A stretch of DNA of 64,000 nt. It comes from Bacteroidota bacterium (GTDB taxonomy: Bacteria; Bacteroidota; Ignavibacteria; UBA10030). The translations under genes and the position numbers were made by a program. Below are positions 8,852 to 43,583 of the stretch, piece after piece. Within the stretch, counting starts at the first letter, position 1; the number at the start of each line of letters is the position of its first letter. The notes beneath the pieces were generated by a model, which was given only the letters and a program-made list of their open reading frames with translations, was not told where the DNA came from and did not search any database. Location of the stretch: positions 6 through 64,005 of the forward strand of contig JBEKOB010000011.1 of the NCBI GenBank assembly GCA_049522195.1, given 5' to 3'.

Positions 8852-8862
8852 CCCCGGATGTT

Positions 8863-10113: not shown

Positions 10114-10123
10114 GGGGAAACGT

Positions 10124-11356: not shown

Positions 11357-11393
11357 CAAATCACCATCGTGAAGTTGTGAACAAGGGAGTACG

Positions 11394-12587: not shown

Positions 12588-12589
12588 GG

Positions 12590-14050: not shown

Positions 14051-14063
14051 CGGAAAGGCAAGT

Positions 14064-15269: not shown

Positions 15270-15282
15270 TTCTCCGCTTATC

Positions 15283-18578: not shown

Positions 18579-18631
18579 CTGCACGCATAAAAACACAAAC
18601 GCATCAAACCTTGAGAGACGAACGGATCGCC

Positions 18632-19801: not shown

Positions 19802-19873
19802 ATCGTTTGTGAGTGAGTGGAAAAATTATGTACCAGGGATGATGTCTCAGATTTATTGAAAAGGAGAAGAACA

Positions 19874-22236: not shown

Positions 22237-23508
22237 ATGACACCAACAGGCGAAGGACCCGTCAAGATTGGCAGCTACCGTTGGATGATTTGTGCATTGC
22301 TCTTTTTCGCGACAACGATCAACTATCTCGATCGAAACATCCTCGGCCTTCTTGCCCCGACGCTGCAGAAAGAGATCGGCTGGACTCCCATTCAGTATGG
22401 ATATATCACCATGGCCTTCCAGGCCGCCTATGCGATCGGGCTCGCTCTGTTCGGCTGGTTCATCGATCGGTACGGAACGAAAATCGGATACTCCATGTCA
22501 ATCATCGGGTGGAGCTTCGCGGCGATGGGGCATGCCCTGGCGTCTACGGTGTTCGGGTTTGGAGTTGCTCGTTCGCTCCTCGGACTCAGCGAGTCGGGAA
22601 ACTTTCCGGCTGCCATCAAAGCCACTGCCGAGTGGTTTCCCAAGAAGGAACGTGCGCTCGCAACCGGCATATTTAATTCCGGTGCGAACATCGGGGCTGT
22701 CGTTGCACCCGCAGTCGTACCATGGCTCACGGTGACGTACGGATGGCAAGCCTCATTCGTGTTCACAGGAGCCGTCGGGTTCGTCTGGCTTGTGTTCTGG
22801 ATCATATTCTATGAGAAACCCGAACACGCGAAGAAGCTGAAAAAGGAAGAACTCAACTATATTCTCAGCGATCCTATCGAGCAAGTCAGTGAAAAGGTCA
22901 AGTGGGTCGAGCTGCTCAAGTTTCGACAAACCTGGGCATTCGTGATCGGCAAATTCTTGACGGATCCGATCTGGTGGTTCTATCTCTATTGGCTGGCGCT
23001 GTTTCTCAATAATAACTTTGGACTTACACTCACGGGTCTGGCATTGCCGCTTATTGTCATCTACATGATGACAAGCATCGGCAGCATCGGCTTCGGCTAT
23101 CTCTCCGGTGCCATGATCAAACGGGGCATGGCGGTCAACAAGAGTCGCAGGCTCGCAATGCTGATTTGTGCCCTTCTGGTCGTCCCTGTCATCACCGCGG
23201 CGAGTGTAACCGATATGTGGCTCGCAATCATGATCATTGGCGTGGCGGCAGCGGCCCACCAGGGATGGTCGGCGAATATTTTCACAACCGCCTCCGATAT
23301 GTTCCCGAAGAAGGCGGTCGGCTCGGTTGTCGGACTCGGCGGATTTGCCGGATCTGTAGGGGGCATGATCTTGCTGACAAGCTCGGGATACATCGTGGAG
23401 GGGACGGGCAGCTATATTCCCCTTTTCATCATCTGCGGTTCCGCGTATCTGCTCGCGCTCGGGATCATGACGCTGCTGCTGCGAAATGCAAAACCTGTGG
23501 AACTCTAG
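22237..23508 (+). CDS. exuT: MFS hexuronate transporter
   Basis: 12-TM MFS protein. N-terminus YRWMICALLFFATTINYLDRNILG matches the ACS/ExuT subfamily. Uronate gene context. Confidence 0.75.
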   Translation: MTPTGEGPVKIGSYRWMICALLFFATTINYLDRNILGLLAPTLQKEIGWTPIQYGYITMAFQAAYAIGLALFGWFIDRYGTKIGYSMSIIGWSFAAMGHALASTVFGFGVARSLLGLSESGNFPAAIKATAEWFPKKERALATGIFNSGANIGAVVAPAVVPWLTVTYGWQASFVFTGAVGFVWLVFWIIFYEKPEHAKKLKKEELNYILSDPIEQVSEKVKWVELLKFRQTWAFVIGKFLTDPIWWFYLYWLALFLNNNFGLTLTGLALPLIVIYMMTSIGSIGFGYLSGAMIKRGMAVNKSRRLAMLICALLVVPVITAASVTDMWLAIMIIGVAAAAHQGWSANIFTTASDMFPKKAVGSVVGLGGFAGSVGGMILLTSSGYIVEGTGSYIPLFIICGSAYLLALGIMTLLLRNAKPVEL

Positions 23509-23526: not shown

Positions 23527-24360
23527 ATGAATCTGGCAGAACTGACAAAACAATATGATTTCACCGACCGCACGATCGTCATTACCGGAGGAGGAGGTGT
23601 TTTGTGCGGAGAGATGGCGTGTGCGCTCGTCGGCTGTAACGCAAACGTCGCAATCCTTGATCGTGACCCCGCCCTCGCAGAGCGGGTCGTGCAACGGTTT
23701 GAAGGAATCAAAGGAAAGTACCTCGTGGCCAAGGGGGACGTGCTGGACAGGGAAAGCCTCGAATACGCTGCGGCGGAGGTCGTCAGTCACTTCGGACGGA
23801 TCGACTGTCTTATCAACGGAGCTGGAGGGAACAACCCGAAGGCGACCACCAGTCCCGAACAGTCGTTCTTCAGCCTGCCCGCTGACTCAATCAAGTTCGT
23901 CTCCGATCTTAACCTGCTGGGGACAGTTCTTCCGAGCCAGGTGTTTGGCCGATACATGGCGGAGCAGAAGGAGGGGATTATCCTGAATGTTTCGTCGATG
24001 AATGCGTTCCGCCCGTTGACGCGCATTCCAGCGTATTCGGCAGCGAAGGCTGCGGTAAGCAACTTCACGCAGTGGCTCGCAGTGCATATGGCGCAGGAGT
24101 ATTCGCCCAAAATCAGAGTGAACGCCATTGCCCCGGGATTTTTCCTCACAAACCAGAACAGGTTTCTGCTTACGGAGAAGGAAACAGGAGAGCTGACGGC
24201 CCGCGGGAAAAAAATCATTGATCACACGCCCATGGGGCGCTTCGGGACACCGGAGGATTTGCTCGGAGCGACGTTGTGGTTGCTTTCGCCGGCATCCGAG
24301 TTCGTCACCGGAATCGTTCTTCCGATCGATGGCGGGTTCGCGGCATACTCCGGGGTCTAG
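23527..24360 (+). CDS. uxuB: SDR-type fructuronate reductase / D-mannonate oxidoreductase (UxuB/YjmF-like)
   Basis: SDR blocks ITGGGGVLC, INGAGGN and YSAAK. About 277 aa with the long NNPKATTSPEQSFF insertion seen in YjmF-type enzymes. Uronate gene context. Confidence 0.6.
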   Translation: MNLAELTKQYDFTDRTIVITGGGGVLCGEMACALVGCNANVAILDRDPALAERVVQRFEGIKGKYLVAKGDVLDRESLEYAAAEVVSHFGRIDCLINGAGGNNPKATTSPEQSFFSLPADSIKFVSDLNLLGTVLPSQVFGRYMAEQKEGIILNVSSMNAFRPLTRIPAYSAAKAAVSNFTQWLAVHMAQEYSPKIRVNAIAPGFFLTNQNRFLLTEKETGELTARGKKIIDHTPMGRFGTPEDLLGATLWLLSPASEFVTGIVLPIDGGFAAYSGV

Positions 24361-24414
24361 AAAAGATACGTGGACAAGAAAGAGAATGACTCAATAAGTA
24401 CGAAGGAGCACGTG

Positions 24415-25497
24415 ATGAGCAATGAATTGAATGTTCGCCCGAACGGTGCACTGGATTTGGTTTCGCTGGGGGCCCTGGTACACAGGTTGGATACGGGGAT
24501 TATTCCCTTTCGGAAGGCCACACAATGCCAGATACACGTCAGCGGCGGTGAGTTCAACGTGGCTGCGAACCTTGCTGATTGTTTCCGGATGAACACCGGA
24601 ATCGCGACCGCCATGGTGGACTATCCAATCGGTGACCTGATAGCGGAGCGAGTGAAGGCGATGGGTGTGAAGCCGTTCTACAAGCACTTCAAACACAATG
24701 GTGTGAACGGGCCAAACATGGCCACCGTCTATAGCGATCAGGGGCATGGTGTGCGTCCACCGGTAGTGTTTTACAACCGATCCAATGAAGCGGCGGCGCA
24801 GTTGAAACCAGGCGATTTCGACTGGGAGGCGATCTTTGCCGGCGGCGTGCGCTGGTTTCATAGCGGTGGTATTTTCGCGGCCTTGTCGGCAACAACGGGG
24901 GAAGTGATCATCGAAGGAATGAAAGCCGCGAAAAAAGCAGGGGCTGTCGTCAGCTTTGATCTGAATTTCAGGGAAAAATTGTGGAATATCTGGGGAGGCT
25001 CACAGAAAGCAGTCGAAGTTGTCGGTCGCATTGTTCAGAATGTGGATGTCCTTGTTGGAAACGAGGAAGACCTTCAAAAAGGTTTGGGCATTCCGGGCCC
25101 GGAGGTGGCGGCATCGTCGTCACTCGACCCAAAGACATTCTTTGGTATGATTGAAAAAGTCATTGCAAAGCATCCGCAGGTCAAAGCCGTTGCAACAACC
25201 CTGCGTGAAGTACATTCGACCAATCGCCACAGCTGGTGTGCCGTGGCATGGGTCAACGGAAAGACGTACATTGCACCGCCTTGTGAGCTGGATGTGCTTG
25301 ACCGCGTGGGTGGAGGCGATGGGTTTGCCAGCGGCTTTATCTACGGTCTGCTGGCTGGCGAGTCGCCTGAGGAAGCCGTCAAGCTGGGATGGGCACATGG
25401 TGCTCTGCTGACGACAACCCCCGGTGACACGACCATGGTGACGCTCGAACAGGTTCGGGCGTTTGCAAAAGGGGGCTCGGCGCGCATCCAGCGTTAG
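24415..25497 (+). CDS. kdgK: 2-dehydro-3-deoxygluconokinase (PfkB family)
   Basis: ORF 24370..25497 trimmed to ATG 24415, which follows AAGGAG. PfkB C-terminal block DRVGGGDGFASGF. Confidence 0.7.
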   Translation: MSNELNVRPNGALDLVSLGALVHRLDTGIIPFRKATQCQIHVSGGEFNVAANLADCFRMNTGIATAMVDYPIGDLIAERVKAMGVKPFYKHFKHNGVNGPNMATVYSDQGHGVRPPVVFYNRSNEAAAQLKPGDFDWEAIFAGGVRWFHSGGIFAALSATTGEVIIEGMKAAKKAGAVVSFDLNFREKLWNIWGGSQKAVEVVGRIVQNVDVLVGNEEDLQKGLGIPGPEVAASSSLDPKTFFGMIEKVIAKHPQVKAVATTLREVHSTNRHSWCAVAWVNGKTYIAPPCELDVLDRVGGGDGFASGFIYGLLAGESPEEAVKLGWAHGALLTTTPGDTTMVTLEQVRAFAKGGSARIQR

Positions 25498-25601: not shown

Positions 25602-26393
25602 ATGGCTGAATTCGAAAAACACCTGTATATGATTGTTTTCCCCATCAACGCGCTTGTCGCTTCTCAGTTGAAGCCGAAAGAGTTTGCCGAGCACTATACT
25701 ATCGGCAGCGCCAAGCACTACAAGGGGAAGGTCATTTTCGTGGAGGTTGACATCAATTTCCGGAACCCTTATTTCGATATTGATCACTATCTCGAGCTGA
25801 CTGTTTCGCACCCGGATGGCCGTCCGAAGAAGACCAAATTCATCTCGTCCTACGCCGTGCTCGAGCATGTCGAACTGAAGGCGATGAAGAACCTCTACCT
25901 GGTTACGGCAAACGGCAAGTCGTTGGAACTCGCCGCAAAACCGTACGATGCTGTGAACGAAGCTGGACTGGTGCGCATCTATCAGGAAATGACCCCGCTG
26001 ACCAACCTCATTGCATCGACGCTGGACCAGCGCTCGTTTGGGAAATACATCACGACGGAGACGAAGTCCAAGGGCGCGCCAAAGATCTGTTTCACGCAAT
26101 ATGATTTTAACGTTTCCGAGTTCCTGGAAAAGAACAAGAACCGTGAAATCATGTACTCCCCGATTCCGGAAACCAATCCGTCGCGCATTTATGACTATCT
26201 CCTGGAATTGAAGGCGGATATGTCCAAAAAAACAAAAACGATCAGCCTGAGCACAACGCTCGTTGAAGCTTCGTATTCGCTGATTAAACATGGATTCTGG
26301 TTTGCTGCGCCGGGCGAGTTGCTGTTCTATCCGATGCCTTCGCATGACGATCTGGAGAACAAATATTACGACTGGTGGAGGTTTGTCCGGTAA
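25602..26393 (+). CDS. Hypothetical protein, unrecognised family (paralog A)
   Basis: 263-aa ORF behind RBS GGAGGAAAGG. Clearly paralogous to the next gene: HLYMIVFPINALVASQLKPKEF vs HLYMLCYRFEALVASHLEPEAF; KKTKFISSYAVLEHV vs KRSKYISVYRVLEHL; KKTKTIS vs KKTKTVS; YYDWWRF vs YAKWWRS. Confidence 0.7.
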   Translation: MAEFEKHLYMIVFPINALVASQLKPKEFAEHYTIGSAKHYKGKVIFVEVDINFRNPYFDIDHYLELTVSHPDGRPKKTKFISSYAVLEHVELKAMKNLYLVTANGKSLELAAKPYDAVNEAGLVRIYQEMTPLTNLIASTLDQRSFGKYITTETKSKGAPKICFTQYDFNVSEFLEKNKNREIMYSPIPETNPSRIYDYLLELKADMSKKTKTISLSTTLVEASYSLIKHGFWFAAPGELLFYPMPSHDDLENKYYDWWRFVR

Positions 26394-26508: not shown

Positions 26509-27282
26509 ATGAACATACACTTGTACATGCTCTGCTATCGTTTCGAAGCGCTTGTCGCGTCCCATCTTGAGCCTGAAGCATTCGGTCGCTACATGGCGAT
26601 TGGTACGCAAAAGAACACACGGGGGAACGTGCTGTTTTTTGAGATCGATCCTTCTTTGAAAAGCGACTATTTCAGGATGGACGACCTCCAGGAACGGTGC
26701 GCACCCCACATGGACGGCAGTCCGAAACGCAGTAAATATATCTCTGTGTACAGAGTTCTCGAACATCTTCCCCTCTCTTCGTTCGGGAAGCTCCATCTCT
26801 GCACGGCAGATGGGCGCGTCCTGTCCCTCGATTCTTCCTCGTACGATGTGAAGACCGAAAAGCCGGGGTCCAATCTCTATGAAGAACTCTGTCCCGTCTA
26901 CCCGCTTGTCGTTTCGGCGCTTCCGCCGTCGGGATTCCTGAAGTTTATGACCGATCCGAAGAATCCGGTCAACGTCCCGCGCCTCTTTTTCGTCGATATG
27001 CTTCTCGACCGGGACGAAAGCGGCATGCTTGCAGGATATCTCCCATATCAGGATCCCCTGCACCTTATCGACTGCGTCAACGATCTGGAAAAGGGGGGCG
27101 ACAAGAAAACCAAGACGGTTTCACGGTCGCCGCGTCACCACGCATTCTTCAGAACCATCCGTCGCGGGTTTTTCATCGGCGATCAGACCGGCATGAAGTA
27201 TTACGAATTCCCCGATCGCCGCGCGCTGGAAGTCGAGTATGCGAAATGGTGGAGATCGGCTTCGGAGAGCCTCGTTTCGTAA
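26509..27282 (+). CDS. Hypothetical protein, unrecognised family (paralog B)
   Basis: 257-aa ORF behind RBS GGAGG. Collinear similarity to paralog A along the whole length. Confidence 0.7.
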   Translation: MNIHLYMLCYRFEALVASHLEPEAFGRYMAIGTQKNTRGNVLFFEIDPSLKSDYFRMDDLQERCAPHMDGSPKRSKYISVYRVLEHLPLSSFGKLHLCTADGRVLSLDSSSYDVKTEKPGSNLYEELCPVYPLVVSALPPSGFLKFMTDPKNPVNVPRLFFVDMLLDRDESGMLAGYLPYQDPLHLIDCVNDLEKGGDKKTKTVSRSPRHHAFFRTIRRGFFIGDQTGMKYYEFPDRRALEVEYAKWWRSASESLVS

Positions 27283-27440: not shown

Positions 27441-30047
27441 ATGGTCTCAACAATGAACTCGATAAGAAAACACTTCAAATCTGAGGCCGTCCGACGTTCG
27501 TACCTGGTTCTCATGATGGTGCTTTTTGCAGCCGTCTATATCTGGCAGATCGGGTATGGTCAGGACAGCACCAAGGTAGCGTCGGCCGTCACTGAAACCC
27601 CTCACTTTCAAGCCTTCTCCCTTTTCAGCGATCCGAAGTATTCCCCCATGGAGATCTTTAGTCTCCTGTCGGTTCTAGGGATCGCCGTTGCCGGACTTCT
27701 CTACGCGCTTCTCCTCATGAGGCAGGTGAACGCTGCCGATTCCGGAACAGACAAGATGAAGGAAATCGCGGCAGCTGTCCGCGAAGGTGCAAACGCCTAT
27801 CTTGGCGCCCAGTTCAAGCGAATCGGTCCGCTGATTATCGTCATCACAGTTCTGTTGTTCATTACGTACACCGGCGCTGTTGATGCATTCCGATGGGGGC
27901 GAGCGTTCGCCTTCCTCGTCGGTGCACTGTTCAGCTGGACCGTGGGATTTGTCGGCATGCGCCTCGCTACCACCGGAAACCTCCGCGTTGCAGCAGCAGC
28001 AATGCACGGCTACGGCAAAGCAATGCAGCTCGGCTATCGCACCGGGACTGTTACGGGAATGCTCACCGACGGGTTGGGATTGCTGGGCGGCACGATCATT
28101 TTCCTGATCTTCGGCGACAAGGCGTATGAGGCATTGCTGGGATTTGGCTTTGGCGGAACGTTGCTAGCGCTCTTCATGCGCGTCGGCGGCGGCATCTACA
28201 CAAAGGCGGCCGACGTCGGAGCAGATCTCGTCGGAAAAATTGAGAAGGATCTTCCTGAAGACGATCCACGCAACGCGGCCACGATCGCAGACAACGTCGG
28301 AGACAATGTCGGAGATTGCGCTGGCATGGCTGCCGATATCTTTGAGAGCTATGAAGTCACCATCGTGGCAGCCATGATTCTTGGAATGGCAAGTTTCGGA
28401 CATAAAGGAGTCATCTTCCCGCTTCTTGTGCGCGGTATCGGCGTCCTCGGGTCAATCATGAGCACGTACACTGTTCGGGCTGGGGAGCATGATTCATCAG
28501 ACAAGGCGCTGAAGAGCGTTCACCGTGGCTTCTGGATCGGATCGGTGATCAGTGTCGTCGGGTTCTTCGTCTTGGGATACTTCTATCTCCATTTCGACGC
28601 CGCATATCTTCTCCTGAATCCAACAGCTGCGGCCGGCTTCCCCCACGGTGATCCAGGCGGCCTCTCAGCCATCGCTTCGTGGGGAATACCGGGGCTCGAT
28701 CTGCGTCCCGCGTGGACGTGTCTCATTGGCGTGTTCCTTGCCGTCGCTCTGAACAAGGTCACGAGCTACTACACGCACACGAGTCACGCTCCAGTTAAGA
28801 GCCTGGCGAAAGCCTGTACGACCGGGCACGCAACAAACATCATCCAGGGAATTGCGGTCGGGTACGAGAGCACAGTGGCTGCCATTATCGTGATTGCGAC
28901 GGCGATCATGCTTTCAGTGCTCGTGTACTCCGGCACTCCTCCGTTGTTCATCGCCTATGGAATTGCGATGACGGGCATCGGCATGTTGACGTTGACAGGC
29001 AACACGATTTCCATGGACGTCTTCGGTCCCGTGGCAGATAACGCGAACGGCATTGGTGAAATGGGTTACGAGCCGAAGGAAATGGAAGCAGCCAACCCGG
29101 GGAGTTACAAACGCGCACGTCAGATTCTTGCTGACCTTGATGCTGTCGGGAACACGACAAAAGCCGAAACCAAGGGGATTGCGATCGGTTCGGCAGTCAT
29201 CGCTGCCGTGTCGCTCTTCGCAAGCTTCATTGCGGTGATCGCGGTGGGAAGTGAGGACAGAATCAACGAAATGACAACAGCACAGTACCTTGTAGAGGCC
29301 GGAAAGCTTACCGTTGCGGATCCTATGGTCTTCATCGGGTTCCTCATCGGCGGTGCGGTGCCATTTCTGTTCAGCAGTATGCTGATACGAGCCGTTGGGC
29401 GCGCAGCATTCGATATCGTCCGGGAATGCCGAGAACAATTCCGTGACGCTGAAATCTGGGAAGGTACAAAGAAGCCCGATTACGGACGTGTGGTTGACAT
29501 CTGTACTAACACCGCGCAAAAAGAACTCATCGGCCCGGGATTCCTCGCCATTATGGCTCCCTTGGCCGTAGGTTTCCTGCTTGGACCCTATGCGTTAGGT
29601 GGATTTTTGGCTGGCATGATCCTCGTCGGTCAGCTCCTCGCAGTCTTCATGTCCAATGCGGGGGGTGCGTGGGATAATGCAAAGAAGCTGATTGAGGATG
29701 GCATCTATGGCGGCAAGGGTTCTGAGGCGCACAAGGCGGCCGTCACAGGTGACACAGTCGGTGATCCGCTGAAAGACACCGCCGGTCCTGCAGTCAATCC
29801 TCTGATCAAGGTCATGAACATGGTCAGCTTGCTAGCACTGGGCCTGGTTCTCCAATACAACGTGATCGCGCCAAAGCTTGCAGCGCCTGGAACAGAATGG
29901 GCGATGAAGACAATCGGAGCAATGGCAGCGCTTCTCTGCTCTATAGCGATTGCGTGGGCGATCTGGCAGAGCAAACGGGAGGGAGCCGAGATCACGCAGT
30001 TTGAACCTAAGGCGAAACCGGCCAAGAAGGGCCGAAAAACCCGGTAG
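27441..30047 (+). CDS. hppA: Membrane-integral proton-translocating pyrophosphatase (K+-independent signature)
   Basis: M-PPase blocks GGGIYTKAADVGADLVGK, DNVGDNVGD, GNTTKAETKG and DTVGDPLKD. The start is uncertain: ATG 27441/27453 adds an about 70-aa segment with an extra TM ahead of the canonical start region at ATG 27648. Confidence 0.85.
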   Translation: MVSTMNSIRKHFKSEAVRRSYLVLMMVLFAAVYIWQIGYGQDSTKVASAVTETPHFQAFSLFSDPKYSPMEIFSLLSVLGIAVAGLLYALLLMRQVNAADSGTDKMKEIAAAVREGANAYLGAQFKRIGPLIIVITVLLFITYTGAVDAFRWGRAFAFLVGALFSWTVGFVGMRLATTGNLRVAAAAMHGYGKAMQLGYRTGTVTGMLTDGLGLLGGTIIFLIFGDKAYEALLGFGFGGTLLALFMRVGGGIYTKAADVGADLVGKIEKDLPEDDPRNAATIADNVGDNVGDCAGMAADIFESYEVTIVAAMILGMASFGHKGVIFPLLVRGIGVLGSIMSTYTVRAGEHDSSDKALKSVHRGFWIGSVISVVGFFVLGYFYLHFDAAYLLLNPTAAAGFPHGDPGGLSAIASWGIPGLDLRPAWTCLIGVFLAVALNKVTSYYTHTSHAPVKSLAKACTTGHATNIIQGIAVGYESTVAAIIVIATAIMLSVLVYSGTPPLFIAYGIAMTGIGMLTLTGNTISMDVFGPVADNANGIGEMGYEPKEMEAANPGSYKRARQILADLDAVGNTTKAETKGIAIGSAVIAAVSLFASFIAVIAVGSEDRINEMTTAQYLVEAGKLTVADPMVFIGFLIGGAVPFLFSSMLIRAVGRAAFDIVRECREQFRDAEIWEGTKKPDYGRVVDICTNTAQKELIGPGFLAIMAPLAVGFLLGPYALGGFLAGMILVGQLLAVFMSNAGGAWDNAKKLIEDGIYGGKGSEAHKAAVTGDTVGDPLKDTAGPAVNPLIKVMNMVSLLALGLVLQYNVIAPKLAAPGTEWAMKTIGAMAALLCSIAIAWAIWQSKREGAEITQFEPKAKPAKKGRKTR

Positions 30048-30079: not shown

Positions 30080-31165
30080 ATGGGTGTGAAGCTACTTGCA
30101 GCATCCGACACTGAGTTCGATCTCCTTGCACTGGGAGAGTGCATGATCCGGTTGAGTCCTCCGGGACATCAGCGGATTGAGCTCACTCCGGTCTTTGAAG
30201 CATACGCCGGTGGGGGAGAGTACAATGTCGCATACGCTCTTTCACGGTATGGAATGCGGGCGGGTTGGATCTCGCGTCTTGTAGACAATCCGCTCGGACA
30301 CTTTATCCAGAATCATGCTCGCACGAGCGGCATGGATCTCAGCGAAGTCATCTGGGTACCGTATGACGGATCGGGTCGCACCGACCGGATCGGGCTCAAC
30401 TTCACGGAGGTTGGTATTGGCGTGCGTGCGAGCGTGACGCTCTACGATCGCGGCCACACAGCCGTAGCGCATATGAAGCCGGGTGAAGTGGACTGGAAAC
30501 GAATCTTTCAACAACGAAAAGTCAGGTGGTTTCATACCGGGGGAATCTTCACGGCCTTGAGCGACAGCTGCGCAGCTGTTGCGTTCGAGTCGATGAAAAC
30601 AGCCCACGAAGCCAGTACAATTGTCAGCTATGACCTGAACTTCCGGAGCAAACTCTGGTCGTCGAAGAAGGCAATCGAAGAGACAAAGAAGCTCATGCCG
30701 TTCATCGATGTGCTCATCGGCAACGAAGAGGATTTTCAGAAGGTGCTTGGGTTCCAGGTGGAAGGAACGGATGAGAATCTGAAGCAGCTGCCGATTGAGG
30801 GATACAAGAAAATGGTGCAGCAGGTGGTCAAGGCTTATCCGCATCTTCAGGCCGTGGGGACGACACTCCGCGAGGTCGTGAGCGGACTGGTCAACAACTG
30901 GTCGGCAATCATGTACTATGACGGCGTTTTCTATAGCTCCCGGAGGTATGAGAACCTGGAAATTGAAGATCGGGTTGGGGGCGGCGATGGATTTTGCAGC
31001 GGGTTTGTGTACGGTCTGCTGCACGGAATATCACCCCAGGAGTGTGTTGAGATGGGTGCTGCACATGGAGCGTTGCTCCAGACAACGCGTGGCGACACGA
31101 GCATGGTAACGATGGAGGAAATTCAGCATGTCATGGGCGGCGGTTCAGCCAGGATCAAGAGGTAG
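30080..31165 (+). CDS. Second PfkB-family sugar-acid kinase, KdgK paralog (substrate uncertain)
   Basis: RBS GGAAGGAG. Collinear with the first kdgK: DRVGGGDGFCSGFVYGLLHGISPQECVEMGAAHGALLQTTRGDTSMVTMEEI vs DRVGGGDGFASGFIYGLLAGESPEEAVKLGWAHGALLTTTPGDTTMVTLEQV. Confidence 0.65.
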   Translation: MGVKLLAASDTEFDLLALGECMIRLSPPGHQRIELTPVFEAYAGGGEYNVAYALSRYGMRAGWISRLVDNPLGHFIQNHARTSGMDLSEVIWVPYDGSGRTDRIGLNFTEVGIGVRASVTLYDRGHTAVAHMKPGEVDWKRIFQQRKVRWFHTGGIFTALSDSCAAVAFESMKTAHEASTIVSYDLNFRSKLWSSKKAIEETKKLMPFIDVLIGNEEDFQKVLGFQVEGTDENLKQLPIEGYKKMVQQVVKAYPHLQAVGTTLREVVSGLVNNWSAIMYYDGVFYSSRRYENLEIEDRVGGGDGFCSGFVYGLLHGISPQECVEMGAAHGALLQTTRGDTSMVTMEEIQHVMGGGSARIKR

Positions 31166-31179
31166 GAGAGCGGCGCACA

Positions 31180-32451
31180 ATGGTATTCTATAAAAGAGGA
31201 TCTGAGAACGACGCTCTCCGTGAGGAAGATCTCAGAGCGGGACTGAATGAAGCACTCGGAAAGCTCGGCGCGCGGAAAAAAGTTCTTGCGATTCCGCCGG
31301 ACTACACCCGGTTTCATTCTCACGCCGGTATCCTGACTCGTCTCGCATGGGAGTACTACCGTGAGCGGTTGACGGATATACTTCCTGCTCTTGGGACACA
31401 CTCCCCGATGCAGGAGAAAGATATCCGATCGATGTTCGGCGATACGCCTCTCGCCCTATTCCGGATCCATGACTGGCGTAACGATATCGTGACGCTTGGT
31501 GAAGTTCCTGCAGAATTTATCCGGGAGCAATCGGAAGGAGAGCTCGAGTATGCATGGAAAGCGCAGGTCAACAAACTCCTTGTACAAGGGGGATTTGACC
31601 TGATTCTTTCCGTCGGACAGATTGTGCCCCATGAAGTGGTCGGAATGGCCGGTCACAACAAGAATATATTCGTCGGCACTGGTGGACAGGAAGGCATTAA
31701 CAAGAGCCATTTTCTCGGCGCTGTCTATGGCATGGAGCGTATGATGGGACGCGCCGACACTCCGGTAAGGCGAGTCCTCGATTATGCCTCAGAGCACTTC
31801 GCAAAACACCTTCCGATCGTCTACGTTCTCACAGTGGTGTCACGTGGAGAAGATGGCCAGCTGAAAGTGCGGGGCTTGTTTGTAGGGGATGATGCAGAGT
31901 GCTTCCATCTCGCAGCGCAGCTCTCTCTAAAAGTGAACTTTCAAATGCTCGACGAACCGCTCAGAAAGGTGATAGTGTATCTGGATCCTTCGGAGTTCAA
32001 GAGCACCTGGCTCGGCAACAAGAGCGTCTACCGGACACGGATGGCAATCGCCGATGGCGGTGAGCTCATCGTGCTGGCCCCCGGGTTAAAGGAATTTGGT
32101 GAGGACAAGCAGATTGATGAGCTCATTCGCAAGTACGGATATGTGACCACGCCCGAAGTGCTGCAGTATGTAAAGACCACGGAAGATCTGAAGCATAACC
32201 TGAGTGCTGCTGCTCACCTCATCCACGGCTCGTCGGAGGGACGTTTCACAATCACGTACTGTCCGGGGCATCTGACAAGACAGGAAATTGAGAGTGTCAA
32301 CTTCAGGTATGCTGATTTGAATGTGATGATGAAGAAATATGATCCCAAGAAGCTCAGGGACGGATTCAACATGATGCCCGATGGCGAACAGGTGTTCTTC
32401 ATCTTGAATCCCGCACTAGGGCTCTGGGCGCACAAAGACCGGTTCAAGTAA
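31180..32451 (+). CDS. LarA-family (nickel-pincer cofactor dependent) 2-hydroxyacid racemase/epimerase homolog
   Basis: Blocks PPDYTR, ALGTH and IVPHEVVGMAGHNKNIFVGTGG...INKSH. The His-x9-Lys-x15-His spacing equals that of His174/Lys184/His200 in L. plantarum LarA, as I recall that structure. Confidence 0.65.
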   Translation: MVFYKRGSENDALREEDLRAGLNEALGKLGARKKVLAIPPDYTRFHSHAGILTRLAWEYYRERLTDILPALGTHSPMQEKDIRSMFGDTPLALFRIHDWRNDIVTLGEVPAEFIREQSEGELEYAWKAQVNKLLVQGGFDLILSVGQIVPHEVVGMAGHNKNIFVGTGGQEGINKSHFLGAVYGMERMMGRADTPVRRVLDYASEHFAKHLPIVYVLTVVSRGEDGQLKVRGLFVGDDAECFHLAAQLSLKVNFQMLDEPLRKVIVYLDPSEFKSTWLGNKSVYRTRMAIADGGELIVLAPGLKEFGEDKQIDELIRKYGYVTTPEVLQYVKTTEDLKHNLSAAAHLIHGSSEGRFTITYCPGHLTRQEIESVNFRYADLNVMMKKYDPKKLRDGFNMMPDGEQVFFILNPALGLWAHKDRFK

Positions 32452-32506
32452 TGGTGAATGTACCTCAGAGAATTCCCGCACGGAAGCATCTCACCAGCCG
32501 GATCCT

Positions 32507-33634
32507 ATGAAAATCGTGATCGACAAGAAAATTCCGTTCATCGATGGTGTGCTCGAGAAATACGGCGATGTTGTTTATCTTGAAGGGCGGGAGATCACCC
32601 GGGACGACGTTCGGAACGCTGATGCACTGATCATCCGCACACGCACAAAGTGCAATCGCGCGTTGCTGGAAGGAACAACGGTCAGGTTCATTGCCTCGGC
32701 AACGATCGGCTTCGATCATATCGATACAACGTACTGCGAAGCTAATAACATTTTCTGGACGAACGCTGCAGGCTGCAATTCGTCCTCCGTGCAGCATTAC
32801 ATCGCGGCGGCGCTGTTTCATCTCGCTGAAGAGTTTCAGTTCGAGCTAGCTCAGAGGACCATCGGCATCGTTGGGGTTGGAAACGTCGGAAGCAAGGTGG
32901 AAAATCTCTGCCGGGCTTTGGGAATGCGTGTGTTGCTGAACGATCCCCCGCGAGAACGTCGCGAGGGATCGAAGAATTTTGTATCACTCAAAACAGTCAT
33001 CGGACAGTCGGATATCGTCACGTTTCACGTGCCGCTGAATCCCGATGGGGTGGACAAAACGTTTCACATGGTGAATGCGGGGCTCCTCTCGAGGTTCAGG
33101 AAGAATCAAATTCTCATCAATTCGTCCAGGGGCGAGGTCGTAGAGGGGAGTGCACTCAAGGCGACGCTCAGGAACAAGATGATTGCCGACTGTGTATTGG
33201 ATGTGTGGGAACACGAACCGGACATAGACCGCGAGCTTCTTGGGCTTGCAGAAATCGCGACGCCCCACATTGCCGGATACTCGGCAGACGGGAAAGCAAA
33301 CGGCACAGCGATGAGCGTGCAGGCCTTCAGCCGGTTTTTTGGATTGGACCTCCATGCGTGGTATCCCGAGAAGGTGCCACTGCCCGCCATGACGACGCTT
33401 GAGGTCGAATGCGGCAATCTGAGTGTCCAGTCAGTGCTCGCCGGTCTCGTGAAGCGAACATATGATATTCTGGCCGATGACGCCAGATTGCGATTGTCCC
33501 CGGAGACATTCGAGAAGCAGCGCGGAGCGTATCCGCTTCGAAGAGAATTCCCGACATACACATTGAACTTGCTGAATGCGCCTGCCGGCCTGAAGTCTCT
33601 TGTGCAGGCAATGGGATTTAGAACACTCAACTAG
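32507..33634 (+). CDS. pdxB: 4-phosphoerythronate dehydrogenase-like D-2-hydroxyacid dehydrogenase
   Basis: PdxB-style N-terminus MKIVIDKKIPF...LIIRTRTK. NAD fold IGIVGVGNVG. Catalytic-region block PHIAGYS. About 375 aa with a C-terminal extension, as in PdxB. Confidence 0.65.
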   Translation: MKIVIDKKIPFIDGVLEKYGDVVYLEGREITRDDVRNADALIIRTRTKCNRALLEGTTVRFIASATIGFDHIDTTYCEANNIFWTNAAGCNSSSVQHYIAAALFHLAEEFQFELAQRTIGIVGVGNVGSKVENLCRALGMRVLLNDPPRERREGSKNFVSLKTVIGQSDIVTFHVPLNPDGVDKTFHMVNAGLLSRFRKNQILINSSRGEVVEGSALKATLRNKMIADCVLDVWEHEPDIDRELLGLAEIATPHIAGYSADGKANGTAMSVQAFSRFFGLDLHAWYPEKVPLPAMTTLEVECGNLSVQSVLAGLVKRTYDILADDARLRLSPETFEKQRGAYPLRREFPTYTLNLLNAPAGLKSLVQAMGFRTLN

Positions 33635-33652
33635 ACACGCGAACAAACAGGG

Positions 33653-35116
33653 ATGGAAAGAATGCAACAACAAGCTGATTTCGGACTCATCGGGTTAGCG
33701 GTGATGGGAGAGAACCTTGTGTTGAATATCGAAAGCCGCGGCTTTACCGTCGCAGTGTTCAACCGAACCGTCAACAAGGTTGACCACTTCGTGCAAGGCA
33801 GGGCAAAAGGAAAGAAGATCATCGGCACGCATTCGATTGTCGATCTTGTCGCTTCGCTCAAGAAGCCGCGCAGAATTATGCTGATGGTCAAAGCGGGCAA
33901 ACCGGTCGATGAGTTCATTGAACAAATCATTCCCCATCTCGAAGCAGGTGACATTATCATTGACGGGGGCAATTCGCATTTTCCTGACACGATCCGCCGT
34001 ACAAAATACCTCGAATCCAAAGGCTTCTTGTTCATTGGAACAGGCGTTTCCGGAGGAGAGGAAGGAGCGCTACGAGGGCCGTCGATTATGCCTGGTGGTT
34101 CACCGGCTGCATGGCCCTTCGTGAAACCGGTTTTCCAATCTATTGCTGCAAAGGTGGAAGATGGAACCCCTTGCTGCGATTGGGTGGGCAACGACGGAGC
34201 GGGTCATTTTGTGAAAATGGTGCATAATGGAATCGAGTACGGCGATATGCAGCTCATTTGTGAGGCATATCAGATTATGCACGAATTGCTTGGCATGAAT
34301 GCCGCCGAGATGCACGAGGTCTTTAAGGTCTGGAACAAGGGCGATCTCGACAGCTATCTGATCGAAATCACACGGGACATCCTCGCCTACAAGGATGCAG
34401 ACGGACAGCCGCTTGTGGACAAGATTCTCGATACCGCAGGCCAAAAAGGGACGGGAAAATGGGCGAGCGTGACATCGCTCGATCTCGGAATCCCCCTGAC
34501 GTTGATCAGCGAATCCGTGTTTGCTCGCTGCCTCTCCTCTATTAAAGAGGAGCGGGTTGCCGCATCCAAGATGCTGAAAGGGCCGGGCACGACATTCACC
34601 GGCGACAAGAAGGCTTTTCTTGCGGATCTCGAGAAGGCTCTCTACGCCTCAAAAATCGTCTCTTACGCCCAGGGCTTCACACTGATGCGAGCGGCAGCGG
34701 ATGAATTCAAATGGAATTTGAACTACGGGGGCATCGCGCTGTTGTGGCGTGGTGGCTGCATCATCCGTTCAGCGTTCCTCGGCAAGATCAAGGAGGCATT
34801 CGAGAAAAACCGAACACTCGCCAACCTGTTGCTCGATCCGTTCTTCAAGGGAAAGATTGAGTCATCGCAGGAAGCATGGCGACGTGTGATTGCCACTGCA
34901 GTCATGCATGGGGTCTGGATTCCGGCCTTCTCGACGGCGCTGAATTACTTCGATGGTTATCGCAATGCCCGTCTGCCGGCAAATCTTCTGCAGGCGCAAC
35001 GGGACTATTTTGGTGCGCACATGTTCGAGCGGGTCGATAAGCCGCGGGGAGAGTTCTTCCACACAAACTGGACCGGTCGCGGTGGCGATACAGCCTCATC
35101 GACCTACATCGTCTAA
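33653..35116 (+). CDS. gnd: 6-phosphogluconate dehydrogenase (decarboxylating)
   Basis: Blocks [47 protein letters not shown] and WRGGCIIRS. About 480 aa. Confidence 0.9.
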
Positions 35117-35176
35117 CCGCCGGACCATATCACACGCATTATTCGATTCACTCAGGAAAAGAGAGAGTAGATATCT

Positions 35177-36427
35177 ATGACACTGGAGAAGTACTCGATT
35201 GGAGTTGGCGACAGGTTTGGACATCAAGGTGCGGCACAGCTGCAGGCGCTTCAACAGGCCGATCAGCGTGGTGTGAAGATCGTGCCCGTGTGGAACAAAT
35301 CGTTCCGTGAGCATACAATCGTCGGCACAAAACCGGCAGACACGCGGATTGCCGCTGACGCTGCTGTCAAAGAGCGCGGTTGGAGCGCTTCGTACTATGT
35401 GGATGCAGACCATATTGGCCTGAAGAATGTCGACCTCTTTTTGGATTCAAGCAACTTCTATACGCTTGATGTCGCTGATTTCATCGGGAAGGTGACTGAT
35501 GAGCAAGAAATAGTAACATTTGTTCGATCGATGATGAAGTACACTTCGGCTTTTCCTCTGGCAGGTGTTCACACGACGACAACTGTAACGAAAGATGACT
35601 TGTATGCGATTGGACGAAAGTATCTCTTTGCGGTAAAAGAGGCGGGCCGAATTTACCGTCACATTGCGGAAAAGAAAGAGGAGCAGAATTTCGTGGCAGA
35701 GGTGTCGACAGACGAAGCGAACGAGCCGCAGACACCCGCTCAGTTGTTCTTCATCCTTGCTGCCCTGGCACAGGAAGGGGTGAGGGTTCAAACGATTGCT
35801 CCGAAGTTCACCGGGTCATTCCTGAAAGGGATTGATTATGTCGGCAGCGTAGAGAAATTCTCCACGGAGTTCGAGGAGGATCTCCTGGTGATCGGGCATG
35901 CCATCAAGACATTCAATCTGCCGCAGAATCTCAAGCTCAGCGTTCACTCTGGCAGTGATAAGTTCTCACTCTATCCGGTGATCCATCGGGCGGTGAAGAA
36001 GCACAATGCTGGGTTACATCTCAAGACTGCGGGCACTACCTGGCTGGAAGAACTGATCGGCCTGGCGATGGCGGGGGGTGAAGGATTGGGTGTGGCACAG
36101 GAGATCTATGCCGAGGCGTTCAGCAGGATTGATGAACTCTGCAAGCCGTATGAGACTGTCATCAATATCGATCGCTCGAAGCTTCCTGATCCCCGGAAAG
36201 TCCGATCGTGGGGAAGCGACGACTATGCGTGCGCGCTAAGACACAATCAGTCAGATCCGAGATACAATCTTCATTTCAGACAGTTGCTCCATGTCGGCTA
36301 CAAAGTTGCAGCTGAGATGGGTGATCGGTATCTGCACATGCTGGTGAAGTATCGTAAGACGATCGGACAGAACGTCTCGGAGAATCTGTACAAACGTCAC
36401 ATTGTCCCTCTTTTTCTTGGAGCCTAA
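35177..36427 (+). CDS. uxaE: Tagaturonate/fructuronate epimerase family protein (UxaE-like)
   Basis: N-terminal pattern YSIGVGDRFGHQG...PVWNKSFRE...YYVDADH resembles the GDRLG...RE...DADH blocks I recall from Thermotoga UxaE. Uronate gene context. Confidence 0.55.
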   Translation: MTLEKYSIGVGDRFGHQGAAQLQALQQADQRGVKIVPVWNKSFREHTIVGTKPADTRIAADAAVKERGWSASYYVDADHIGLKNVDLFLDSSNFYTLDVADFIGKVTDEQEIVTFVRSMMKYTSAFPLAGVHTTTTVTKDDLYAIGRKYLFAVKEAGRIYRHIAEKKEEQNFVAEVSTDEANEPQTPAQLFFILAALAQEGVRVQTIAPKFTGSFLKGIDYVGSVEKFSTEFEEDLLVIGHAIKTFNLPQNLKLSVHSGSDKFSLYPVIHRAVKKHNAGLHLKTAGTTWLEELIGLAMAGGEGLGVAQEIYAEAFSRIDELCKPYETVINIDRSKLPDPRKVRSWGSDDYACALRHNQSDPRYNLHFRQLLHVGYKVAAEMGDRYLHMLVKYRKTIGQNVSENLYKRHIVPLFLGA

Positions 36428-36540: not shown

Positions 36541-36569
36541 TTGACAAAACCCCTTTCTTTTGCTAAAGT
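36541..36569 (+). promoter_or_regulatory. Candidate sigma70-like promoter for the first pectin locus
   Basis: TTGACA, a 17-nt spacer, then TAAAGT, read directly. This leaves an about 260-nt leader before the TonB-dependent receptor ATG. Confidence 0.4.
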
Positions 36570-36607: not shown

Positions 36608-36832
36608 AACCCGGAGCGATCCAGGCTTCCGCTCATCCGAACCGTCGTTCAAAATTCACATCATACAAGCGAACCAGGGTCGCACCGAGCTCCAACCATG
36701 CTTGCATACTTCAATCAGGAATACGGTGTCCACGACTGATTTGTCTGCTTCCGCACACGTGTGCGGAGCAAGCTGCTTCGTTGCCCATCCTGATCATGTT
36801 CCACCATACTCAAATCATGAACCGGGGTTTCT

Positions 36833-39949: not shown

Positions 39950-42274
39950 ATGACGACCAGGTTTTCTAAGTTCCTTGTGTTTCTGCTTCTGCTCCTCCCG
40001 ATAAAGGCCTTGAGCCAGGACCTTGTCGTGGCGGACTATTTTTCCTCGACGGGATTTGGTGCAGGCCAATATCTGAACGTGGCGATTGCGTCAGATACGG
40101 GCAGCGCAGCGTTCAAGGCTGGAACCCGGGTCTACGTATTGCATAAAGATGGGCTTTACGCGTGGAACGCTTCCCTGGATTTTGCTGCGGGGAGCACAGT
40201 GACATTCCGTGCTGCATACGGCGAAACCGGCCATTACGATCCAACGATCTACTTTTATCCGACGGCTACAGGTGGTGGTGCACCTCCCGGACAAATGACC
40301 CAGTTGTCTACCAACATGACGTTGAGGTTGACGCACATCATGATCTCCGGCTACAACGAGCAGGTCGATTCGCTCCTCAAGCTTTCGAATACGATGATCA
40401 TGAGGACGTTGTCGACAAGTTCGAATACTCGGATCTATATTGACAGCTGCATCATGAAGACGATCGCAGGTCAGATGATTCGAACGGAAGGCCCCGCGGC
40501 GGTTGTCAGGGTTACAAACTCGATTTTTGCAGACATGGGCCACCCGACATCCAATTTTGGCGCGGGGAAGTGGATCGATGCCAGAAATGTGCGAATTGAT
40601 ACGTTGTTCGTCCAGAATAATACGTTTGTGAATTTGTACGATCGTGTTATACGGCATTACCAGGCAACGAGTCCCAACAGCATCCGAAACCTGGTTTTTG
40701 ATCACAACACAGTACTCTATAGCATGTCCTATCATGGATTTCTGTCTCTCGGTACAGTGGACACGCTTGGCACAGGGACTCTGCAAATAACCAATAACCT
40801 GCTCGTTGATCATTTTGCGTTAGGGGAAGACACAGCAGTTGTCCGTCAGGTGGAATTCAGCGACCCCGGGGAAAATGACCCGGTCAACAACAATCCCAGG
40901 ATGACATGGGTGCTGACAAACAAGAACAATACAGCAAAATGGAATATCCAGAAGAACTACTACGCATCTTCGGATTCCGGCAAGGCCATCCTTGCGTTGG
41001 GTCCCCCGAATGACGCATACTTTGCTGGACCATTTTATCACAGACAAGGTCCTCCTTACCTGACATGGAATATGAACACAATATTGGCATCTCAAGGAAA
41101 GGATACCGTAAACACATTTATTCCAGTCAATAGCATTACGCCGACAAAAACTCCCGGTCTGATGACAGAGTTGATCCGATGGGTATTAAACAAAAGCCTG
41201 GACAACAAGAACAAGCCCACTCTCAACACTGCCGCGAATTGGAACTGGACGTACGATTTCCACCGCCATCACCTGGAGTACTACTACGATACCCTTGATT
41301 GTTCGTACACAGCAAGTACCGATCTTAACCATGCAGCGACCGATGGCTCGCAGATCGGTTCCAAGCGGTGGGCGTTCAAGGGAGTTACTGGCGGTGCAGG
41401 TGGCCCGGCTTCGGTGGTGTGGAATCTCATCCTGCCAGACAGTGCCAATCCTTCAACGACCGTCGGAAACGTGACGGGTCAACCGATTAGCGGCAAGAAT
41501 TTCTATGTGCGAAATTTTGCAGGCACTCCAAATGGCCCACTCGGCACGACAGCGATGCGCTGGTGGCCATCCGCTGATGGGGGTGTGACTGGCTCAATGT
41601 GGGGACCCGAGACCGGCGAAGTTGCTGACCGTTATATTCAGCTCTCCGCGGCTCCGAACCTGGGGAATTCATTTACCGTGGACTCGCTTTCGATCTGGAT
41701 GGTAGGTGGTGGAACGGGCGGTATGCGCGTCAATCTCTACTATTCAACCGATCCGACTTTCGCCACCAAGACAAAACTGAATCCTGGGGATACGGCCATC
41801 TACCTGCCTCAAAATAGCGGTGTCACGGTCTACCAGTACTACGCGTTCGCGATTGGAAAAATCGTCAACAGCGGACAATCGTTGTATTTCAGGATTTACC
41901 CGTGGTACACGGGCGCCTCATCAAATTCGAAGTACGTCCACACGCAACTTGCCGTCATCAAAGGATCAACAACTGTGGCAACGGCAGTGCGTGAAGATGG
42001 AGCCGTCCCGCGAGCATTTCAACTTGCTCAGAATTACCCCAATCCGTTCAACCCGACAACAACCATCCAGTTTTCAATTGCCCAGAAGGGCCATGTGGTC
42101 CTCGAGGTTTTCAATATACTCGGGCAATCGGTTGCACGTCTTGTGGATGGCGAGTTGTCTGTCGGATTGTATCACGTAACATTTGATGCCTCCCGCCTGA
42201 GTTCCGGTGTGTACCTCTATCGGTTGCAGGCCGGTGATTTTGTTCGGACGCAGAAGATGGTACTGATGAAGTAA
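39950..42274 (+). CDS. Secreted T9SS-sorted protein, probable right-handed beta-helix glycan-binding or lyase-like protein of unknown function
   Basis: RBS GGAGGA and signal peptide. Repetitive N/T/V-rich beta-helix-like segments. C-terminal sorting domain [15 protein letters not shown]...[22 protein letters not shown]. Confidence 0.6.
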
Positions 42275-43536: not shown

Positions 43537-43583
43537 GTAAATCCGGTTGTGAGCAGGCAGATTTTCGTTGAGTGAGAGGTTGC

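Follow-up and report, generated by a model that had tools for sequence, protein, structure and literature searches.

The 64,000-nucleotide stretch of contig JBEKOB010000011.1 analysed here (the window, to which all coordinates refer) comes from a bacterium of the Bacteroidota (Ignavibacteria, UBA10030) and contains a large pectin and hexuronate utilisation region. Between positions 20752 and 36427 this region encodes, all on one strand, a uronate isomerase (UxaC), a UxaE-family epimerase, a short-chain dehydrogenase/reductase (SDR) fructuronate reductase, a LarA-type epimerase designated LarAH18 and a 6-phosphogluconate dehydrogenase (Gnd). The locus probably encodes a hexuronate branch leading into the pentose phosphate pathway, either in place of or in parallel with the route through a dehydratase and 2-keto-3-deoxy-6-phosphogluconate (KDPG).

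We infer the following substrates, and a sequence of epimerisation and phosphorylation that is weighed further below. UxaC would isomerise galacturonate and glucuronate, the UxaE-like epimerase would convert tagaturonate into fructuronate, and the SDR reductase would produce D-mannonate. Inversion at C2 would be catalysed by LarAH18 with a nickel-pincer nucleotide (NPN) cofactor, and phosphorylation at C6 by Kin1 (24370–25497), a dedicated PfkB kinase derived from KdgK, such that the two steps jointly yield 6-phosphogluconate. Gnd would then form ribulose-5-phosphate and CO2. The NAD(P)H consumed by the reductase would be recovered at the Gnd step, which would make the route redox-neutral. A second PfkB kinase, Kin2, would phosphorylate 2-keto-3-deoxygluconate (KDG) arising in the KduI/KduD branch from unsaturated uronates that are released by pectate lyases. 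The open reading frames (ORFs) and other features on which this proposal draws, with the evidence for each, are:

20752–22173, + strand: UxaC, uronate isomerase (galacturonate to tagaturonate, glucuronate to fructuronate); NF002794 548 bits, cut-off 387; Pfam UxaC
23527–24360, + strand: SDR fructuronate reductase/D-mannonate oxidoreductase (UxuB function, UxaD type); NF006132 370 bits, cut-off 281
24370–25497, + strand: Kin1, PfkB kinase of clade b; Pfam PfkB
30080–31165, + strand: Kin2, PfkB kinase of the KdgK clade; Pfam PfkB and clustering
31180–32451, + strand: LarAH18, LarA homolog; Lar_N domain; NF052594 670 bits, cut-off 500
32507–33634, + strand: PdxB, 4-phosphoerythronate dehydrogenase; NF001309 458 bits, cut-off 434; DUF3410
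33653–35116, + strand: Gnd, decarboxylating NADP-dependent 6-phosphogluconate dehydrogenase; TIGR00873 773 bits
35177–36427, + strand: UxaE-family protein, short form; Pfam UxaE 192 bits
36464–36512, + strand: intrinsic-terminator-like hairpin followed by a U-rich tract, at which the unit ends; folding and shuffles

The last five genes form the co-directional unit described in the initial annotation. Each ORF lies where it had been placed on the + strand and has a strong family match, and the intergenic gaps measure 14, 55, 18 and 60 nt, within the range of 14–60 nt given there. The strong terminator assigned to the end of the unit was also recovered. The hairpin has 19 pairs and is followed directly by UUUCUCUUUCUC; the predicted energy of the folded stretch is −33.6 kcal/mol, a stability reached by 0 of 200 shuffles (z = −3.8). 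A simple terminator scan overlooked this hairpin, which was detected by folding against shuffled sequence. Beyond it, a promoter-like TTGACA-17-TAAAGT lies at 36541–36569, 5′ of the next gene.

LarAH18 belongs to the LarA superfamily, as indicated by a Pfam PF09861 match of 41.6 bits (cut-off 23.3) and by phmmer matches to the structures 4NAR (Thermotoga maritima GntE, also GntE2; 146 bits) and 2YJG (lactate racemase apoprotein). The NCBIfam model NF052594, 'nickel-dependent putative hexonate epimerase', matches with 669.9 bits, residues 10–417 aligning with profile positions 2–410 of 411. In an alignment to 2YJG, whose numbering equals that of LarA, both catalytic histidines are kept (H74 and H151, equivalent to LarA H108 and H174), as are the lysine that tethers the cofactor (K161, LarA K184) and the histidine nickel ligand (H177, LarA H200). 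Residues D41 and R44 correspond to LarA D72 and R75, and all six positions are invariant among the aligned relatives.

Glutamate, valine, alanine and histidine at LarA positions F175, F176, W358 and T359 constitute a signature of gluconate 2-epimerases (PMC11770544). This E-V-A-H signature is present in LarAH18, where E152 and V153 follow H151, and A345 and H346 align with the 'AAH' of 4NAR. The GntE enzymes LarAH19/GntE1 of C. glutamicum, LarAH20/GntE2 of T. maritima and LarAH15 of Phytophthora are NPN-dependent D-gluconate 2-epimerases (PMC7583248, PMC11770544). In 2020, GntE was shown to interconvert D-mannonate and D-gluconate, and GntE1 and GntE2 both epimerise D-mannonate (PMC7583248). 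LarAH18 shares with these enzymes the superfamily, the catalytic histidine pair, the lysine tether, the histidine nickel ligand and the E-V/S ... A-H signature. It differs from them in falling into group 18, outside the groups with demonstrated mannonate/gluconate epimerase activity (LarAH19, LarAH20 and LarAH15), and in its characteristic context of Gnd, an SDR and a PfkB kinase; its 146-bit match to GntE2 marks a distant relationship. Hexonate epimerisation by group 18 was hypothesised by the authors of PMC7583248, whose Table S1 gives as neighbours of the group 6-phosphogluconate dehydrogenase (32%), SDR proteins (36%), ribokinase-family kinases (16%), UxaC and KduI. LarAH18 is described here as a homolog of NPN-dependent 2-hydroxyacid epimerases that is predicted to epimerise D-mannonate, or its 6-phosphate, at C2 to D-gluconate or its 6-phosphate.

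A scan of species-representative genomes returned at least 588 LarAH18 matches, of which the best 80 (67–80% identity across phyla) were taken with their flanks. They come from Bacteroidota, Ignavibacteria, Planctomycetota, Acidobacteriota, Spirochaetota, Calditrichota, Kryptoniota, Marinimicrobia, Lentisphaerae and Verrucomicrobiota, and the closest named relatives are metagenome-assembled genomes (MAGs) of Ignavibacteriales. Linkage was counted only where the flank in question extended for 4.5 kb or more (61 loci downstream, 58 upstream). At 54 of the 61 evaluable loci, a same-strand Gnd is found no more than 4.5 kb downstream of LarAH18, and a mannonate-forming SDR lies upstream at 43 of 58. 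UxaE and UxaC are found at roughly half of the loci with both flanks. Genes around the core are otherwise reshuffled between lineages. A core that is kept while its surroundings are shuffled indicates that SDR, (kinase,) LarAH18 and Gnd form a selected unit rather than a housekeeping coincidence, and this core recurs across phyla. The initial annotation had suggested comparing the order of kinase, larA-like gene, gnd and uxaE with related genomes; the order of the window, from UxaC to the TonB receptor, is preserved exactly in the Ignavibacteriales MAG GCA_026390595.1 (contig JAPLFQ010000008.1), whose LarAH18 is 91% identical.

Genes beside Gnd in relatives point to a pentose-phosphate destination. 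Transketolase stands directly after Gnd at three loci of the Melioribacter type, L022, L036 (12789–14786) and L048, with 697 bits to transketolases in the PDB. At L044, L049 and L077 the neighbour of Gnd is a class II fructose-bisphosphate aldolase, identified by eye alone (on the opposite strand in L077).

It is conceivable that the genes are neighbours by accident. In that case gnd and pdxB would be housekeeping genes within a hexuronate locus, mannonate would leave through UxuA, KdgK and Eda encoded at another site, and the LarA homolog would serve some unrelated function. UxuA or Eda does adjoin the module in some relatives, and the presence of a KdgK (Kin2), KduI and KduD implies an Eda elsewhere in the genome. 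PdxB, moreover, occurs at just 20 of 61 loci, and in one relative it sits far from LarA and Gnd. A coincidence of this kind is nonetheless very improbable, as the pairing of LarAH18 with Gnd at 54 of 61 loci from about ten phyla, amid shuffled gene content, is far beyond chance. A dedicated kinase clade also accompanies the pair, and neither zwf nor pgl was identified beside these gnd copies among the gene clusters examined. The reservation in the initial annotation that the linkage of pdxB and gnd may be coincidental therefore falls away for gnd; for pdxB, present at about a third of the loci, the picture is ambiguous.

The window PdxB passes the equivalog cut-off and carries PF11890 (DUF3410, the C-terminal dimerisation domain; 44.6 bits). 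The 20 of 61 evaluable loci with PdxB between LarAH18 and Gnd are mostly from Bacteroidales, where 13 of 15 have it there. At locus L085 (6001–8096; Ignavibacteriales GCA_016214905.1) a PdxB of 377 aa with DUF3410 lies directly 3′ of a member of the 263-aa family described below, and no LarA or Gnd is nearby; PdxB may accordingly be a simple housekeeping neighbour in the lineage of the window rather than a pathway enzyme. Its substrate 4-phosphoerythronate arises from erythrose-4-phosphate and inhibits 6-phosphogluconate dehydrogenase (PMC6449344). One idea, offered as such and not as a finding, is that PdxB beside Gnd protects the branch from 4-phosphoerythronate under high pentose-phosphate flux. 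A PdxA-like gene, identified by eye alone, lies on the opposite strand a few kb upstream of the module at L002 (1293–2324) and L003, both of which have no module PdxB.

All PfkB kinases of the 80 loci were clustered together with Kin1 and Kin2 of the window, which resolved three clades. Clade a is heterogeneous (n = 11), includes Kin2 and adjoins KDPG aldolase in 7 of 11 cases. Clade b (n = 16; 66–84% identity) includes Kin1, and 14 of its 16 members directly adjoin LarAH18 or Gnd. The same is true of 19 of the 20 members of clade c, which come from Bacteroidales, Planctomycetota and Verrucomicrobiota. Where one locus has two kinases (L010, L064, L065, L066 and L075), Eda is paired with the kinase of clade a, and LarAH18 with that of clade b or c. 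The substitutions R32P, E110D, S118P and N272H, at positions that are invariant in clade a, are common to clades b and c, both of which retain the catalytic motifs.

Kin1 and Kin2 are 40% identical. Kin1 lies outside the Eda-linked KdgK clade and deviates from clade a at R32P, S118P and N272H. Against the T. maritima KdgK structure 2AFB, Kin2 scores 242 bits and Kin1 162 bits; Kin2 likewise outscores Kin1 with the NCBIfam models of KDG kinases, and as it reaches no equivalog cut-off its assignment is made at the level of the clade. By these comparisons, Kin1 is probably the module's 6-kinase for a hexonate (mannonate or gluconate), and Kin2 a probable KDG kinase serving the KduI/KduD branch. 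The roles given to the two kinases in the initial annotation are consequently reversed: the kinase beside larA, taken there for the gluconate kinase, groups with Eda-linked KDG kinases, whereas the upstream kinase at 24370–25497, taken for kdgK, belongs to the clade that travels with LarAH18 and Gnd. The Kin1 ORF begins with GTG at 24370, but since the ortholog at L081 has 360 aa, translation probably starts from the ATG at 24415 (M16).

The order of the C2 inversion and the phosphorylation is a close to even call, with epimerisation of free mannonate nominally ahead; in its favour are the analogy with the characterised GntE enzymes and the fact that every LarA-family enzyme that has been assayed takes non-phosphorylated acids. 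In the tentative alternative, the kinase acts first, as in Lactobacillus suebicus: a Kin1-type enzyme would be a D-mannonate 6-kinase, and LarAH18 a 6-phospho-D-mannonate 2-epimerase that delivers 6-phosphogluconate to Gnd. This is a sub-variant with the same net pathway, and its probability is counted within that of the branch as a whole. The sole biochemical demonstration of the route comes from L. suebicus. Extracts of L. suebicus gave no epimerisation of free mannonate and contained a kinase activity on mannonate as well as a 2-epimerase activity on 6-phosphomannonate (PMC6978723). Further points in its favour are that LarAH18 forms a separate, tightly conserved group with only about 146 bits to GntE2, and that it has invariant basic or polar residues, such as K175, R191, K274 and R355, without GntE2 equivalents. 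The kinases associated with it are KdgK derivatives with shared substitutions of a specificity type. An FGGY or P-loop gluconate kinase (GntK) was found neither in the window (Pfam scan of ORFs of at least 180 aa) nor, in a partial and partly by-eye identification of gene clusters, at the 80 loci, whereas an FGGY GntK is paired with T. maritima GntE.

Set against phosphorylation before epimerisation is the substrate range of the superfamily: all characterised members, including every one with the E-V-A-H signature, use non-phosphorylated 2-hydroxy acids (PMC7583248, PMC11770544). The extra basic residues also have no three-dimensional placement, because the AlphaFold model of LarAH18 is unusable (predicted local distance difference test, pLDDT, 37.9), its alignment being shallow and composed of sequences that are too similar. 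The kinase gene lies 5′ of larA in Bacteroidota and Ignavibacteria and 3′ in Planctomycetota, and this lineage-variable gene order is uninformative on the order of the reactions.

The kind of pathway proposed here is already known, and the locus is a variant of it. A route from mannonate through gluconate into the pentose phosphate pathway is attributed to Rodionova et al. (2012) where the proposal is cited in PMC6978723, PMC7583248, PMC3750489 and PMC7953866. The T. maritima operon gnd-uxaRED-gntEK has been assigned a role in taking mannonate to pentose phosphates (PMC3750489); the full UxaR-regulated operon, aldH-pelB-gnd-uxaR-uxaE-uxaD-gntE-gntK, is induced by pectin (Rodionova 2012; Rodionov 2013, PMC3750489). 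T. maritima and the window have in common a uronate isomerase, UxaE, an SDR reductase, a LarA-family epimerase, a sugar-acid kinase, Gnd and a pectin locus. They differ in the epimerase, which is LarAH20 (GntE2) in T. maritima and the distantly related LarAH18 in the window, and in the kinase, an FGGY GntK in the former and a KdgK-derived PfkB protein in the latter. The window also has an added PdxB and an inserted pyrophosphatase and KdgK, and phylum and lifestyle are different.

Valk et al. (2020) described a hybrid isomerase-phosphoketolase pathway in L. suebicus, in which galacturonate passes through tagaturonate, fructuronate, mannonate and 6-phosphogluconate to ribulose-5-phosphate via Gnd, as is proposed here (PMC6978723). 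Like the proposed branch, that route is redox-neutral and bypasses UxuA, KdgK and Eda (PMC6978723). In extracts, mannonate was converted into 6-phosphomannonate and then 6-phosphogluconate (PMC6978723), so the order shown is mannonate kinase followed by 6-phosphomannonate 2-epimerase; the genes were not identified in that work, and GntK homologs were the kinase candidates. A literature search found no follow-up paper on the mannonate kinase or the 6-phosphomannonate epimerase, and no further paper on DUF2088 or lactate racemase in uronate contexts. LarAH18 and the kinases of clades b and c might conceivably be the missing genes for these two orphan activities reported in 2020, a suggestion that is put forward tentatively.

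The classical Ashwell isomerase pathway proceeds through UxaC, UxaB/UxaA or UxuB/UxuA, KdgK and Eda. Its upper part, UxaC and fructuronate reductase, is shared with the locus, and the KduI/KduD/KdgK branch for unsaturated uronates is found both there and in the window. The lower parts differ: dehydration and aldol cleavage in the Ashwell pathway stand against the epimerisation, phosphorylation and oxidative decarboxylation predicted for the window, which has no dehydratase or aldolase. The conversion of mannonate through 6-phosphogluconate to ribulose-5-phosphate that had been outlined for the locus is, given the linkage and the LarAH18 residues, the best reading. The accompanying choice of kinase is not supported, and an exit from the hexuronate pathway without a dehydratase, which the initial annotation had taken to be undescribed, was on record from T. 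maritima (2012–13) and from GntE and L. suebicus (2020).

It is unlikely, although arguable, that LarAH18 acts on some other sugar acid, such as L-gulonate/L-idonate, altronate/allonate or an aldarate (as suggested for group 19), with an indirect link to Gnd. Group 18 has no assayed member, and GntE1 of group 19 has a very high KM for mannonate, from which its authors suspect a different native substrate (PMC7583248). The SDR of the window has matches below threshold to gluconate 5-dehydrogenase models, but the only model whose cut-off it exceeds is that for D-mannonate oxidoreductase. UxaC and UxaE, which lead to fructuronate and then mannonate, co-occur with LarAH18, and the gene directly downstream of it is almost always a bona fide 6-phosphogluconate dehydrogenase, the substrate of which is the C2 epimer of phosphorylated mannonate. 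No genes of idonate or aldarate pathways were seen among the clusters examined, in which most small clusters were not identified.

The UxaE-family protein is a probable tagaturonate/fructuronate 3-epimerase. Its Pfam match covers profile positions 79–434 of 475, and it aligns with Cohnella laeviribosi UxaE (6ILB/6IL9) at 90 bits, residues 6–334 on 92–414, so that about 90 residues at the start of the Cohnella chain are not covered by the alignment; the window protein has no NCBIfam match.

Several observations weigh against the proposed branch as set out above. No member of the LarAH18 group has been assayed, and its NCBIfam name is still 'putative'. Genes for synthesis of the cofactor (larB, larC and larE) are absent from the 64-kb window, and LarBCE does not figure among the neighbours of group 18 genes in Table S1 of PMC7583248. 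In the window, four genes separate Kin1 from larA; in this lineage the module is apparently split by an inserted pair of uncharacterised genes, a pyrophosphatase and kdgK. No perfect or near-perfect palindrome common to the intergenic regions was found, and thus neither a shared operator nor any other direct sign of co-transcription, although the palindrome search is by itself uninformative. Eda lies right beside the module at 14 of the 80 loci and UxuA at 5 of 80, which counts against the branch as a necessary replacement of the classical route. Finally, the kinase step is not uniformly accounted for, since 13 of the 80 loci have no PfkB kinase and a PFK-family protein instead.

Those 13 loci (L009, L011, L013, L022, L023, L026, L032, L033, L038, L049, L051, L061 and L070) contrast with the other 67, of which 38 have a PfkB kinase (0/13 versus 38/67; Fisher p = 1e-4, uncorrected for phylogeny). 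The PFK-family protein matches the pyrophosphate-dependent phosphofructokinase (PPi-PFK) subfamily PRK14072 and has an invariant GGNDS motif, at a site where the canonical PFK motif is GGD[G/D]S. It is accompanied in 12 of the 13 loci (e.g. L022, 7800–10000) by a HAD-like protein of about 296 aa with intact DSDG and GDAPGD motifs, which falls into none of the known families. These two proteins could together phosphorylate hexonates as an alternative kinase system, or they could be a sedoheptulose-7-phosphate/fructose-6-phosphate kinase for pentose-phosphate processing together with a proofreading phosphatase. In a weaker extension of the reading in which phosphorylation precedes epimerisation, PdxB and the HAD-like phosphatase beside Gnd may both remove 4-phosphoerythronate.

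The remaining features of the hexuronate run are:

16635–17789, + strand: regulator with a GntR helix-turn-helix and a LacI-type sugar-binding domain, heading the co-directional hexuronate run; Pfam GntR and Peripla_BP_1/3
17823–18578, + strand: KduD, 2-dehydro-3-deoxy-D-gluconate 5-dehydrogenase, in the branch from unsaturated uronates to KDG; TIGR01832 374 bits, cut-off 339
18467–19801, + strand: GH88-like ORF between KduD and KduI
19817–20707, + strand: KduI, 5-dehydro-4-deoxy-D-glucuronate isomerase; NF002091 418 bits, cut-off 250
22237–23508, + strand: ExuT-like major facilitator superfamily (MFS) transporter, predicted sugar-acid transporter subfamily; MFS_1 217 bits; TIGR00893 261 bits, below cut-off
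25602–26393 and 26509–27282, + strand: tandem paralog pair of an uncharacterised 263-aa family; no Pfam or NCBIfam match
27441–30047, + strand: membrane-bound ion-translocating pyrophosphatase; H_PPase 808 bits; NF001952 963 bits

Upstream of the five-gene unit, uxaC, the ExuT-like MFS transporter, the uxuB-like SDR reductase and a PfkB kinase had all been listed before and are as described there. KduD and KduI, and the two paralogs and the pyrophosphatase that occupy the interval between Kin1 and the unit, all on the + strand, are additions to that list. Homologs of the regulator occur at 9 of the 80 related loci. The GH88-like ORF overlaps the end of kduD by 112 nt, and its real start is probably further downstream.

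The window has no UxuA, UxaA, UxaB or KDPG aldolase by a Pfam scan of all ORFs of at least 180 aa, as the initial annotation had stated, and tblastn of the window with UxuA and Eda proteins from related loci also gave no match. The use of this absence as a sign of a bypass does not hold. KduI, KduD and KdgK of the locus lead to KDPG, so an aldolase is needed elsewhere in the genome, and the absence of Eda from 64 kb consequently says little about a bypass; relatives, as noted, carry Eda and UxuA beside the module. The dehydratase/aldolase exit and the pentose-phosphate exit coexist in at least some organisms, as in T. maritima.

The two paralogs between Kin1 and the pyrophosphatase are 33% identical to each other. 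Their family is almost always exactly 263 aa long, with 65–85% identity across Ignavibacteria, Bacteroidota and Elusimicrobia, and its contexts vary, from NamZ-x-VIT1 in Elusimicrobia to MacB-x-PdxB in another Ignavibacteriales genome. An AlphaFold model of the family (pLDDT 85; predicted template modelling score 0.85) had no match in a Foldseek search of the PDB (best E = 0.4, TM at most 0.2), and may represent a new fold. The pair was considered as the 'missing' dehydratase or aldolase and rejected, since the family sits in unrelated contexts elsewhere; it probably intervenes in the module without belonging to the pathway. The pyrophosphatase ends 32 nt upstream of Kin2 and occupies the same position in L001 and L081. 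Its embedding in a sugar-acid run raises the question of a possible relation to the PPi-PFK-like genes of other versions of the module.

Downstream of the unit lie genes for TonB-dependent receptors, proteins with type IX secretion system (T9SS) sorting tails, pectinesterases, GH28, GH88/105 and GH43 proteins and pectate-lyase-like proteins. A perfect 18-bp palindrome, TCCGCACACGTGTGCGGA, is located at 36750–36767 in the 405-nt intergenic region upstream of a TonB-dependent receptor gene (36833); it is a candidate regulator site, and it is not repeated in the other intergenic regions examined. In two proteins of the pectin locus (39950–42274 and 43572–45296, + strand), the T9SS C-terminal sorting domain is all that Pfam recognises, with no catalytic domain, and these may be unclassified pectin-active enzymes or binding proteins. 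A separate co-directional cluster at 12–16392 (+ strand) encodes two xanthine-dehydrogenase-like molybdenum enzymes with FAD and 2Fe-2S subunits, a dihydropyrimidine-dehydrogenase-like pair, an amidohydrolase, pyridoxal-phosphate enzymes, a carbamoyltransferase-like protein, an M20 peptidase and XdhC. By its content, this cluster looks like a locus for the anaerobic breakdown of purines or pyrimidines.

Compared with the precedents, what is new here is the strength and breadth of the linkage between LarAH18 and Gnd, together with the recurrent PdxB and the alternative pair of PFK-family and HAD-like proteins. New as well are two apparently dedicated PfkB clades, distinct from KdgK, as the predicted module kinase that replaces the FGGY GntK of Thermotoga. 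These results offer candidate genes for an unassayed group of nickel enzymes and for a hexonate kinase of the PfkB type. They also correct likely annotation errors, namely 'lactate racemase' and 'KDG kinase', and metabolic reconstructions of MAGs would change with them. A possible use lies in the engineering of galacturonate fermentation.

In sediments, soils, digesters and guts, much of the available carbon comes from pectin and other polymers rich in uronates. The classical galacturonate route uses up reducing power and so restricts the range of fermentation products, whereas the branch through 6-phosphogluconate remains redox-neutral as far as ribulose-5-phosphate (PMC6978723). If the kinase does act first, LarAH18 would be the first NPN enzyme with a known sugar-phosphate substrate, and hexuronates would leave mainly through this branch in many anaerobes of the Bacteroidota, Ignavibacteria and Planctomycetota that degrade polysaccharides. 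The compact module of SDR, kinase, LarAH18 and Gnd, with its at least 588 LarAH18 matches in species-representative genomes and its spread over about ten phyla of mostly uncultured polysaccharide degraders, suggests that such a branch is common in nature, beyond Thermotoga or Lactobacillus.

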